From the sequence record NC_070874.1: 64,000 nucleotides of DNA; one strand, 5' to 3'. Shown here piece after piece: positions 1 through 5,564 of the stretch; positions within the stretch are counted from its first letter, which is position 1, and each line of letters begins with the position of its first letter. Position numbers and translations under genes: made by a program. The notes under the pieces are model-generated. The model saw only the letters and a list, made by a program, of their open reading frames with translations. It was not told the DNA's origin and made no database searches. The stretch comes from Escherichia phage vB_EcoP-ZQ2.

Positions 1-561
1 ACCACATTGCAGTAAGAACTTGTTAAGTGCCCAAGGACCACTAGCAACAGTTTCCATTACATTCTCAAAAGTCTTGAGACGAATACCTTCGCCGAATACT
101 TCTTTAGGCTTGGCTTCTGAACCATAGAACGCAGTCATAACTGCCTGCTTAGTGTCACTACGTTTAATACGTGATGCTTCACCAAGGATATCCAGCATCT
201 TGTGATAGATGACTGTATAAGCATCACGGCGTAATGGCTTACCATTCTCTCCCATGTAGTTAACTACGTTACATAGTTCAGCAGCAGAACGGTCACCAGT
301 CAGACAAGCCAGTAACTGTAAGCCAGATGATGTAGCATCTAGAGCTACGGCATAACCAATAGGCTTACCTGCTTTCATATCTTTCCATGCGTTTACACCT
401 GCAAAGAACAGAGCAGAATCTTCAGCTTCATCTACCAGATTAAGCAGGTTAGCTTCGTTCTCATCGAACCAGGCAATACGTTCATCCCATGTCTTTTTAT
501 CTAAGCCATAGTTATTGGCGATATCTACTTTCAGGTATTCACGAGCGGTTAACAGTTGCAT
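1..561 (-). CDS. T7-like RNA polymerase catalytic subunit of a split heterodimeric RNAP (N4 RNAP II gp16-like); C-terminal part lies beyond the window start
   Basis: Minus-strand ATG at 561..559 with AAGGAA RBS 6 nt upstream; frame stays open to position 1 (absent from ORF track because no stop in window). Translation MQLLTAREYLKVDIANNYGL...KPIGYAVALDATSSGLQLLACLTGD aligns with the T7 RNAP segment around KPIG...AFDGSCSGIQHFSAMLRD (motif A Asp). Confidence 0.8.
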   Translation of the reverse strand, partial: MQLLTAREYLKVDIANNYGLDKKTWDERIAWFDENEANLLNLVDEAEDSALFFAGVNAWKDMKAGKPIGYAVALDATSSGLQLLACLTGDRSAAELCNVVNYMGENGKPLRRDAYTVIYHKMLDILGEASRIKRSDTKQAVMTAFYGSEAKPKEVFGEGIRLKTFENVMETVASGPWALNKFLLQCG

Positions 562-618
562 TTTATGTTCCTTTTGCTTCTTGGCTCCCCACTATGGAGA
601 GCCTGCTTATTGGATGGA

Positions 619-858
619 TTAGCCAGCATTAAATGATGACAATACTATTCCTGGTTCCACACCTTCGGTGGCAATACCCAGATACTCAACGTGCACTTTA
701 TCAGGAGAAGAACACCAAGAGGAGTATGCACTCCATTCTCCATCTGGGTTAATAAGACGAGCCTCTTCTACGGTTTTAGCAGCTACCACAGCAGAATCGA
801 ATGTATCCCAATCTGTATTCTCTTCCTGGCTAATAAGCCATAGTTTTAATCTACTCAT
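619..858 (-). CDS. hypothetical small protein (79 aa) inserted between the two RNAP II subunit genes
   Basis: ORF track; start overlaps the stop of the upstream subunit gene by 8 nt (translational coupling); no recognisable motif. Confidence 0.4.
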   Translation of the reverse strand: MSRLKLWLISQEENTDWDTFDSAVVAAKTVEEARLINPDGEWSAYSSWCSSPDKVHVEYLGIATEGVEPGIVLSSFNAG

Positions 859-1669
859 CGTTTACTAGCTCCTTATCAGCGAACTCCAGTACAGCTTTGT
901 TGTAACTGGTTCCCTGATAGTTGATGTGGTAACCACAGGCATAGGTACGCCCACGTTTGTCGTATTTGTGGGCCAGTGAGAAGTTATTACCTTCTTTGGT
1001 CACTAACTCCATTACTTCCTTGGCTGTACGGCTGTACTTCTCAAAGGCTTTAACACGTTTCTCATAGTCCTGACGGGTTTCACCTTCTTTGGGTTTATCC
1101 ATGTTAGGACGGGAGTCTTTTACATAGTTAGCAACGTCCCAGTTAATACAGAGACGTTGATTGTTCATACGGTTGATGTGGTCAAGACAGACATCCATCT
1201 CATGATGGTTCTTCTTGAGGATGATGCTACCTCTGCTTTCATAGTAACCAGTATCACGGTTACACTTAACAGGCTTAGGAGCACTTACGATAGGCAATGG
1301 ATACTGGAATGCTTCCAGTTCCATCTGTACATCTTCACTAATCTCATAGATAACACCGAACTTGTCGATGGTAGGGTCATAGTTGAAGCAATCATTCTCT
1401 GCCATCTTATACAGACAGTCAGCGATGTACTGAGCATCATCTGAGTGACTCATGAGAGAGCCAATCATAGTCTGGATGTCAGCACGTTTATGTAGGGCAA
1501 TCTGCACCATTGCATCAATGAGCAACTTATAATCAATTTCCAAATAGGCAGCGAATGCCTTAAAGTCAATTTCTTCGGAGTCCTCGAATTCCTTCCTCAT
1601 GCGAGGCAAGAGCTGATTTTTATTGAATAGTTTTTCGAGTTGCTTCTGATGTTCAATAGATGAGTACAT
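851..1669 (-). CDS. T7-like RNA polymerase N-terminal-homolog subunit of the split RNAP (N4 RNAP II gp15-like), 272 aa
   Basis: C-terminal KYDKRGRTYACGYHINYQGTSYNKAVLEF matches T7 RNAP DWRGRVYAVSMFNPQGNDMTKGLLTLA; the homology continues in the downstream partial ORF (1..561), so the polymerase is split into two genes. Confidence 0.8.
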   Translation of the reverse strand: MYSSIEHQKQLEKLFNKNQLLPRMRKEFEDSEEIDFKAFAAYLEIDYKLLIDAMVQIALHKRADIQTMIGSLMSHSDDAQYIADCLYKMAENDCFNYDPTIDKFGVIYEISEDVQMELEAFQYPLPIVSAPKPVKCNRDTGYYESRGSIILKKNHHEMDVCLDHINRMNNQRLCINWDVANYVKDSRPNMDKPKEGETRQDYEKRVKAFEKYSRTAKEVMELVTKEGNNFSLAHKYDKRGRTYACGYHINYQGTSYNKAVLEFADKELVNDE

Positions 1670-4580: not shown

Positions 4581-4961
4581 TTAGAAAGTCAGTTTACGAG
4601 CATATTTATTCTCGTCTGCTGGGATGTCAGCAGCCTCTGCTTTCACGCGTCTTAGCTGAACTTGCAGGTTAATGATACCCTCTTCACCTGGTTCCAGGTT
4701 CTGAGCATATGCGATTAACTGTTCCAGCAAGTCGTTCTGTGCACAACGCATAGCACGGAAGTCAGCGTTGCTGCTATTAGTAGGCAGCGGTTCCTGAGTA
4801 TCCAGTGGAATACCAGTAGGCAGTGAGATGAATTTCTCATCATCAGAGCCTTCATTAGCTACATAACCAATGTTCAGCCAGAACTGAGCTTTTGGTTTGT
4901 CAGTTTTAGCAGTGGTAGCAGCAGCGTTAGATTGACCGAAAGTGAATTTTTGAATAGCCAT
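4581..4961 (-). CDS. hypothetical early protein (about 126 aa from the internal start MAIQKF)
   Basis: ORF track gives 4581..5054, but that N-terminal extension runs into the promoter hairpin at 5068-5084 and lacks an RBS; the ATG at 4961..4959 has a GGAGAG RBS 7 nt upstream. Confidence 0.5.
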
Positions 4962-5058
4962 TTTGTACTCTCCAGATTTATGTGATTTACGGGTGAACTC
5001 GTCGGTGAGAACACCCAAACAAAGGGATAAAAGTTCAATGATTAGTGGATGCATTTAC

Positions 5059-5084
5059 ATCATCCATAAGACGCGGAGCGTCTT
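5059..5084 (-). promoter_or_regulatory. N4-type virion-RNAP hairpin promoter (leftward)
   Basis: CATCCATAA-AGACGC-GGA(5075-5077)-GCGTCTT: 7-bp stem (5068-5074/5078-5084), GGA loop, CC 11-12 nt from loop centre; intergenic between the genes ending at 5090 and starting at 4961. Confidence 0.6.
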
Positions 5085-5089
5085 TATTT

Positions 5090-5305
5090 TCAGAATGGAC
5101 AGCTTGTTTCAGCTTCAAGTTTGTCCATGAAGTAGCCTGAGTTATGCAGATAAGCATGTAATTCAACATGCCCTTGCATACGGTATTCATCGAGTAAGGA
5201 GAGAAACTCTCCATACTCTTTATCTGTAGACCTTCTTGCGTTACTGAGGTCTACGGGTTTATTACTAAAGCAACTCTCAATCATACGGATATTTTCTACA
5301 TTCAT
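5090..5305 (-). CDS. hypothetical early protein (71 aa)
   Basis: ORF track. Confidence 0.45.
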   Translation of the reverse strand: MNVENIRMIESCFSNKPVDLSNARRSTDKEYGEFLSLLDEYRMQGHVELHAYLHNSGYFMDKLEAETSCPF

Positions 5306-5359
5306 GGATGACTCCTAATTGGTTGAAATGTATCCGTAAGCTGTGGAACAGCTTAGTTT

Positions 5360-5506
5360 TTACTTATCTGATAGCAGGATGGATTTTACTTTGTGACCAT
5401 TACCATAGTCAGTGTTTACCAGAGGTTTTACAATGTGAACGGAAACCATCACAACAATTGCAAGGACACAAACAGTTAAGATAAATGCGTTTTCTAGTTT
5501 GCTCAT
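5360..5506 (-). CDS. small hydrophobic membrane protein (48 aa), not in ORF track
   Basis: Minus-strand ATG at 5506..5504; translation MSKLENAFILTVCVLAIVVMVSVHIVKPLVNTDYGNGHKVKSILLSDK with one predicted transmembrane helix; fills an otherwise empty 290-bp gap. Confidence 0.35.
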   Translation of the reverse strand: MSKLENAFILTVCVLAIVVMVSVHIVKPLVNTDYGNGHKVKSILLSDK

Positions 5507-5564
5507 AGTAGGAATCTCTTTTAACTTTTTATGCAGAATAGTTGAACTATCTAATGCCCTTAAC

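Follow-up and report, generated by a model that had tools for sequence, protein, structure and literature searches.

A PHROG 5444 gene in the variable RNA polymerase II subunit spacer of an N4-like coliphage

We analyzed a 79-aa ORF that lies between two RNA polymerase subunit genes of Escherichia phage vB_EcoP-ZQ2 (NC_070874.1). The whole stretch of DNA that was analyzed, 64,000 nucleotides in length, is referred to as the window. The features of the locus are given below in window coordinates, with the basis of each assignment in brackets.

1..561, minus strand: RNAPII large subunit, homologue of N4 gp16, N-terminal 187 codons (RNA_pol and phrog_2051)
568..573, minus strand: Shine-Dalgarno sequence AAGGAA of the large-subunit gene (sequence reading)
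583..603, minus strand: hairpin GGCTCTCC-ATAGT-GGGGAGCC in the large-subunit leader (RNAfold, alignment A3)
604..618, minus strand: conserved right-hand junction TCCATCCAATAAGCA (alignment A3 and spacer sequences of relatives)
619..858, minus strand: 79-aa ORF, member of PHROG 5444 (phrog_5444 match, homologues, dN/dS)
851..858, minus strand: start/stop overlap ATGAGTAG (sequence reading; ATG inside the last codons of the small subunit)
851..1669, minus strand: RNAPII small subunit, homologue of N4 gp15, 272 aa (phrog_2166, E=7e-118)
869..874, minus strand: Shine-Dalgarno sequence AAGGAG of the 79-aa ORF (within the small-subunit codons for ...DKEL...)

Reading of the sequence placed the ATG of the ORF at 858-856 and its TAA at 621-619, with 79 codons. 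The TAG of the small-subunit gene (853-851) lies inside ATGAGTAG and gives an 8-nt overlap with the ORF, and a 57-nt gap (618-562) separates the ORF from the large-subunit gene, which starts with an ATG at 561-559 and is truncated at the window start. The original prediction had described the same arrangement, with an overlap of this size upstream and a gap of this size downstream, and our coordinates reproduce it. The AAGGAG stands 10 nt upstream of the ATG of the ORF. Because this ATG sits inside the last small-subunit codons, translation of the ORF is probably coupled to that of the small-subunit gene. For the 60-nt leader of the large-subunit gene, RNAfold gave a folding energy of -16.3 kcal/mol. 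The hairpin at 583-603 was invariant in alignment A3 and was also retained in relatives with an empty spacer; no T-run followed its stem.

Over its first 3 kb, the window shared 92-94% identity with members of the genus Gamaleyavirus, among them Escherichia phages IME11, ECBP1, Bp4, and G7C. It belongs to this genus (Schitoviridae, Enquatrovirinae) and is an N4-like coliphage; Gamaleyavirus records annotate the two flanking genes as RNAP1 and RNAP2. The small subunit matched phrog_2166, which is described as 'N4-like RNA polymerase', and the large subunit matched phrog_2051 (E=5e-84), with a further match of the large-subunit piece to Pfam RNA_pol (E=3e-13). In the translations, we found a DX2GR-type motif, YDKRGRTY, in the small subunit and the motif-A region (KPIGYAVALDATSSGLQ), with VALDATSSGLQ, in the large subunit; motifs B and C of the large subunit fall outside the window edge. 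Identity to N4 was 66% for the small subunit (gp15, 269 aa) and 75% for the large subunit (gp16, 404 aa), and gene order and neighbors were the same as in N4, including a DUF4326 gene upstream. These comparisons identify the flanking genes as homologues of gp15 and gp16 of N4 RNAPII. On the phrog_414 profile (816 positions), the small subunit aligned to 227-424 and the large subunit to 429-596, adjoining without overlap. The claim that the two flanking ORFs together cover contiguous T7-RNAP homology, so that nothing of the polymerase is missing, is borne out by this alignment. RNAPII of N4, the one phage for which an active heterodimer of the two proteins is known, is a gp15-gp16 heterodimer that serves as the middle-gene polymerase, with gp1 and gp2 as cofactors (PMC4496689). 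In contrast to the window, the N4 spacer is 47 nt long and holds no ORF between gp15 and gp16, and the cofactors gp1 and gp2 are encoded elsewhere in N4 and are unrelated to the 79-aa protein.

The 79-aa ORF matched phrog_5444 with E=1.2e-24, its residues 4-79 aligning to profile positions 1-82 of 82. A word-indexed search returned 77 close homologues, all of them unnamed, and near-identical GenBank genomes list the ORF as a hypothetical protein. A profile search with PHROG 5444 over 1.84 billion cluster representatives (clusters at 50% identity) revealed 6,303 representatives at E<=0.001 and 3,740 at E<=1e-10. Nearly all matches were 78-110 aa long, with the domain at the C-terminus. On comparing nine Gamaleyavirus copies by the Nei-Gojobori method, dN/dS was 0.13 for the 79-aa ORF, 0.058 for the small subunit, and 0.038 for the large subunit. 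An absence of selective constraint, which the original prediction had named as evidence that would speak against it, was not found in these nine copies. Taken together, the sequence comparisons argue that the 79-aa ORF is a genuine, intact protein-coding gene under purifying selection. Divergence was uneven along the ORF: its last 60 nt (window 619-680) were far less divergent than its middle among the nine copies, with a mean pairwise difference of 0.03-0.07 versus 0.17-0.22 mid-ORF, and 0.19 versus 0.33 at third codon positions. This low divergence could stem from mosaic recombination close to the right junction or from an overlapping constraint at the nucleotide level.

The spacer between the subunit genes was classified in 41 distinct Gamaleyavirus genomes from the tblastn coordinates of both subunits, and the sequences of representatives were read. 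Spacer length was measured between the final small-subunit codon and the large-subunit start. The following classes were observed.

58-59 nt: no ORF (EC1-UPM, phi G17); 2 genomes
160 nt: 36-aa ORF (CU10EC); 1 genome
200-211 nt: 53-aa ORF, MKTNIGSYELW...; 14 genomes
292-294 nt: 79/80-aa ORF alone; 6 genomes (plus the window)
441 nt: 38-aa ORF and 80-aa ORF (E20, F22); 2 genomes
470 nt: 53-aa ORF and 79-aa ORF (IME11, 24-32N); 2 genomes
515 nt: two other ORFs (Jgk1); 1 genome
553-674 nt: three or four different homing-endonuclease genes (HNH_3+AP2, NUMOD1); 13 genomes

The 79-aa ORF was carried by 10 of the 41 sequenced Gamaleyaviruses. This comparison with related genomes had been proposed together with the prediction, and it revealed that the ORF is missing from 31/41 Gamaleyaviruses and from N4. 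Presence or absence of the ORF makes no difference to the polymerase subunits: nithesis and St11Ph5, both of which lack the ORF, were 100% identical to the window over the first 187 large-subunit residues, and the small subunit was 99.3% identical in ECBP1, which does not have the 79-aa ORF. We further sampled 80 diverse N4-like viral contigs, with large-subunit identities of 30-100%. Their spacers ranged from -1 to about 2,400 nt, the two genes being adjacent in approximately 15 contigs, and a spacer ORF of at least 30 aa was present in 60 of the 80. The 138 spacer ORFs of these contigs fell into 96 clusters, 71 of them singletons. A PHROG 5444 member was found in the spacer of IME11 only (1/80). 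Among Klebsiella N4-like records, 2 of 29 had a member; in the Klebsiella N4-like phages JZBo1 and VLCpiP4b, the spacer consists of a 98-aa ORF and an 83-aa PHROG 5444 member. The spacer of the metagenomic N4-like contig L024 holds an 81-aa ORF and a 79-aa member.

For the G7C-type organization, zero to eight 'spacing genes' have been described between RNAP1 and RNAP2 (Amgarten et al. 2017, PMC5418858), and G7C itself has an HNH endonuclease in this spacer (PMC5418858). Module swapping has also been reported for G7C-like phages, together with endonuclease-containing, intron-like insertions in g16 (10.1101/542787). The genus of the window includes G7C, and the likeness lies in subunit genes that are split by at least one unrelated ORF; as an unrelated ORF between RNAP1 and RNAP2, the window ORF is a spacer gene of this type. 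It differs in that it is a PHROG 5444 member and not an endonuclease. The junction anatomy described below (embedded Shine-Dalgarno sequence and ATG, right border, and duplication in IME11) comes from the present analysis and not from PMC5418858. Since the N4-like subunit spacer was already known to vary, an ORF between the RNAPII subunit genes is an ordinary, already described arrangement in N4-like phages. The relatives show that the spacer is a recombination hotspot: some have nothing in it, others have unrelated ORFs or homing endonucleases there. A second spacer family, with proteins of 81-103 aa and the motif GGMG.L..G.DG..LY.A.D...G..VTV.L, recurred next to the small-subunit gene in several Enquatrovirinae lineages (L011 2194-2490, L023 2700-2996, L024 4756-5001, L016, which is Jgk1, and L115-L121); it had no Pfam match.

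At the left border, all spacer ORFs of the relatives start with an ATG inside the last small-subunit codons, with AAGGAG before it in the codons for ...DKEL.... Relatives with an occupied spacer have GATAAGGAG at the Shine-Dalgarno site, whereas the empty-spacer phages EC1-UPM and phi G17 have GATAAAGAA, with AAAGAA instead of AAGGAG and no ATG. The last three residues of the small subunit vary with the occupant and read NED, NDE, or NND. At the right border, the stop codon of the occupant is followed directly by TC(C)ATCCAATAAGCAGG, the hairpin, and the ribosome-binding site of the large subunit, and the elements of this border are all present in the empty-spacer phage EC1-UPM. In IME11, a second copy of the left junction, ATAAGGAGCTAGTAAACGATGAGTAG, stands between the 53-aa ORF and the 79-aa ORF. 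The spacers of ECBP1 and PhAPEC5 (L002, L007) were compared with that of IME11 (L004) for traces of deletion. The ECBP1-type 53-aa ORF ends in ...ACTGGCTAA and the 79-aa ORF in ...GCTGGCTAA; the final codon and stop of the 53-aa ORF (CTGGCTAA) are those of the 79-aa ORF in alignment A3. The CTGGCTAA end of the 53-aa ORF is what would remain if the 79-aa ORF were deleted from an arrangement like that of IME11. It implies that the lineages of the 14 Gamaleyaviruses with the 53-aa ORF had the 79-aa ORF until a deletion of 259 nt removed it. The 79-aa-type ORF adjoined the large-subunit gene in 4/4 two-ORF arrangements seen. Border, duplication, deletion, and ORF order together indicate that whole ORFs are probably gained and lost precisely, by recombination at short conserved junctions.

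The spacer of one locus, L005 (IMGVR_UViG_3300006879_000003, 4817-5555), carries, in this order, an HNH_3+AP2 gene, a duplication of the last 21 codons of the small subunit, and a 38-aa ORF. Such an arrangement is the footprint of an insertion that was associated with an endonuclease and took place where the small-subunit gene has its 3' end. New material would enter at that end. When related phages co-infect a cell, recombination through the conserved polymerase flanks and short repeats at the junctions would add or remove units, and homing endonucleases with the spacer site as their target would probably promote the exchange. Friedrich et al. in 2007, cited in PMC5418858, reportedly treated free-standing homing endonucleases and 'genes in pieces' in T4-like phages. 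Free-standing homing endonuclease genes have been described at the boundaries of genetic exchange in T4-like phages, along with 'genes in pieces' (PMC2988022, PMC10448857). Our locus resembles these systems in having an intergenic site within an essential, conserved gene set where HNH and NUMOD genes are repeatedly present, in the duplication of flanks (L005, IME11), and in the mosaic exchange of neighboring small ORFs. It differs in that the 79-aa ORF encodes no nuclease and would at most be a passenger of such exchange.

Outside this spacer, members of PHROG 5444 were widely distributed. A split RNAP was not present nearby in 79 of 80 viral contigs encoding a member, IME11 being the exception. 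No gene recurred as a neighbor within three genes on either side in 56 PHROG 5444 loci; the neighbors included SNF2 and UvsW helicases, C5 and N6 methylases, RecT, a dCTP deaminase, a RecD-like helicase, and an amidoligase cluster. GenBank matches came from jumbo phages of Erwinia, Salmonella, Serratia, and Aeromonas, from T5-like Pectobacterium phages, and from Rhizobium, Acinetobacter, Vibrio, and cyanobacterial phages. In cellular genomes, 15 loci were detected among the genomes of 185,579 species, mostly on short, phage-like MAG contigs, so that they offer no cellular setting for comparison. Co-occurrence with a split RNAP, as for an RNAPII cofactor, was not observed in these samples (10/41, 2/29, and 1/80 spacers with a member; 79/80 loci without RNAPII). 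Within the RNAPII spacer, members were found in three Enquatrovirinae lineages, namely Gamaleyavirus, two Kaypoctavirus-like Klebsiella phages, and the metagenomic contig L024, and in each case the member directly preceded the large-subunit gene. Compared with L024, the window was 73% identical in the ORF and 66% and 72% identical in the subunits. The Klebsiella copy was only 42% identical to the window or L024 copy, with its subunits at 71-78%. Either PHROG 5444 would have resided in the spacer for long and been lost many times, or it would have been captured more than once. Because the same spacer is occupied in three lineages and the ORF is as conserved as the subunits in L024, long residence, and hence some functional link to the operon, is possible.

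Several explanations of the ORF were weighed against these results. In 8/9 close copies, the plus strand has a frame that stays open over the full length of the ORF, so that the true gene could be this antisense frame or the 79-aa ORF a product of chance. However, the antisense and sense frames share wobble positions, phage E20 has the antisense frame interrupted, just 3/89 distant homologues have it open, and the sense protein is kept in thousands of homologues. For these reasons we regard the antisense frame as an artefact and ruled it out as a second gene; the probability that the ORF is not the true gene is negligible. The original prediction had also offered the ORF as a remnant of an insertion. 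A decayed, functionless fragment of a homing endonuclease, intron, or intein would be in keeping with the HNH_3+AP2 and NUMOD1 genes that occupy the same spacer in relatives, with the endonuclease gene and the 21 duplicated small-subunit codons in L005, and with the intron-like insertions in g16 of G7C-like phages (10.1101/542787). The ORF, however, matches phrog_5444 from end to end and has a dN/dS of 0.13, and the family comprises thousands of intact stand-alone genes of the same length. A search of the ORF for nuclease motifs (HNH, GIY-YIG, LAGLIDADG), intein motifs, or a degraded frame found none, and neither Pfam nor NCBIfam scans gave a match. That part of the suggestion which sees inserted, exchangeable material in a hotspot stands, whereas decay into a remnant is extremely unlikely for an intact gene under constraint.

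The other suggestion, a small accessory factor of the polymerase, would make the 79-aa protein a third subunit of the heterodimeric RNAPII or an accessory factor dedicated to it. The ORF does lie inside the polymerase operon with its start overlapping the small-subunit stop, three N4-like lineages have a member just before the large-subunit gene, and the ORF equals the subunits in conservation between the window and L024. Moreover, the N4 literature still posits a promoter-melting factor 'X' that has not been identified (PMC4496689). Yet the purified gp15-gp16 heterodimer of N4 is active (PMC4496689; Willis et al. 2002 cited there), and N4 lacks the gene, which speaks against a requirement of the ORF for RNAPII. 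The ORF is likewise missing from 31/41 Gamaleyaviruses and 79/80 diverse N4-like contigs, and subunits 99-100% identical occur in phages without it. Members of the family are found in jumbo phages, T5-like phages, and others, and 79/80 of the loci are in phages with no split RNAP nearby. Close relatives and N4 do without the ORF; the polymerase-accessory suggestion fails on this point, and we consider such a role very unlikely. We conclude, with a probability of roughly 0.8, that the 79-aa ORF is an accessory gene, intact but optional, and that its site between the RNAPII subunit genes is a variable spacer.

The window protein is acidic (pI 4.25, net charge -8), as is the family (median pI 4.4, median net charge -6). 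It is a PHROG 5444 member that shares the full profile, length, and motifs of the family, with no difference from it. The conserved motifs LWLISQ..N, YDT(Y/F)DSAVVA, W..SPDKV, and C-terminal SFNAG are all present in it. The C-terminus was exactly (F/Y)NAG in 94% of 209 members and SFNAG in 183/209, and the window protein ends in ...SFNAG. In alignment A1, S22, V25, A27, A33, and W48 were invariant and 21 columns nearly invariant, all of which are kept in the window. An AF2 model built with 52 homologues (pLDDT 88, pTM 0.78) predicted a beta-beta-alpha-beta-beta topology, in which the conserved polar and aromatic residues S10, Q11, N14, D18, T19, D21, S22, W42, W48, P52, and N77 cluster in loops. 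The predicted fold matched no solved structure. The sole PDB match of the family profile, 6xi1, was the sum of four repeats in a repeat protein, each worth about 7 bits, and was rejected because no single stretch was significant. A literature search for phrog_5444 found no papers, and neither a Pfam or NCBIfam model nor a solved structure of the family was found. In BFVD, uncharacterized proteins of jumbo phages, chimallivirus-type phages included (201phi2-1, Noxifer, Phabio, Psa21, Aeromonas D3, and Erwinia jumbo phages), share the predicted fold, frequently with several copies in one genome; with lower scores, the fold is also found in the metagenomic giant viruses Marseillevirus LCMAC101 and Pithovirus LCPAC101. 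One family protein, P0090 (168 aa), has a tandem duplication of the domain in one polypeptide; its single-sequence AF2 model reached a pLDDT of 35. Because of this duplication, single-domain PHROG 5444 proteins may act as dimers.

The optional accessory gene probably encodes a protein that works on its own and not with the polymerase, and it would be expressed early through translational coupling to the small-subunit gene. A tentative reading is that of an autonomous, early-expressed, small acidic binding protein with a broadly conserved target. The target may be a host factor, a defense component, or a small ligand in the early or DNA-metabolism phase of infection, and the invariant free C-terminus would belong to the functional site. 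A rival reading, in which the protein is an antitoxin-like or anti-defense neutralizer that counters, for instance, a MazF-type endoribonuclease or some other effector of abortive infection, starts from P0169 (236 aa, metagenomic). There, apparent read-through of the stop codon (..SFNAD-RRKVN-M..) joins the domain to a PemK/MazF-like toxin, which puts the domain gene directly upstream of MazF, the usual position of an antitoxin; a small, acidic protein among early genes would also be in keeping with it. However, just one of the 150 representatives that were inspected has the MazF fusion, no toxin gene recurs as a neighbor in 56 loci, and the family is nearly absent from cellular genomes. As to type II antitoxins, the gene downstream of the window ORF is the RNAP large subunit, and 15 loci were found in the genomes of 185,579 species. 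We consider this reading unlikely. Another proposal is that peptide or amide ligases modify the C-terminus of the protein, which would serve as their substrate or as a tag. It draws on the exact (F/Y)NAG-COOH end of 94% of members and on P0033, which is encoded between Amidoligase_2 and RimK-like ATP-grasp genes, beside GATase and COOH-NH2 ligase genes. This ligase context is one case, however, and no ligase gene lies near the ORF in the window or the 56 other loci, leaving the proposal highly improbable. The P0033 locus (64% identical; L025, L026, 3720-3953) belongs to a phage that is not N4-like, and its amidoligase context is odd given the free C-terminus.

More speculatively, and with a rather low probability, PHROG 5444 might represent a new class of viral effector, such as a sponge that takes up a conserved small-molecule immune signal, or an inhibitor of a widespread factor of host defense or DNA metabolism. 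If this were true, its repeated placement directly upstream of the Enquatrovirinae large-subunit gene would guarantee very early co-expression. PHROG 5444 is among the larger wholly uncharacterized small-protein families of lytic phages and is nearly exclusive to phages. Since its predicted fold is unmatched, the family is a reasonable candidate for anti-defense or host take-over screens. The remaining interest lies in this large uncharacterized protein family. The spacer is, for its part, a cleanly delimited natural cassette site in an essential early operon, and it could serve as a neutral, early-expressed insertion site for the engineering of N4-like therapeutic phages.

The leader of the large-subunit gene was compared among the window, N4 (L010), Klebsiella phages (L011 and L023), and L109-L129. 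A hairpin approximately 20 nt upstream of the large-subunit ribosome-binding site was kept across Enquatrovirinae with differing stem sequences: GGCTCTCC/GGGGAGCC or GAGCC/GGCTC in Gamaleyavirus, AGCC/GGCT in N4, and GGGC/GCCC in the Klebsiella phages. These stem differences look like compensatory change, and the hairpin may act in RNA processing, translational control, or pausing. A hairpin before the large-subunit gene was present in many more distant N4-like contigs as well.
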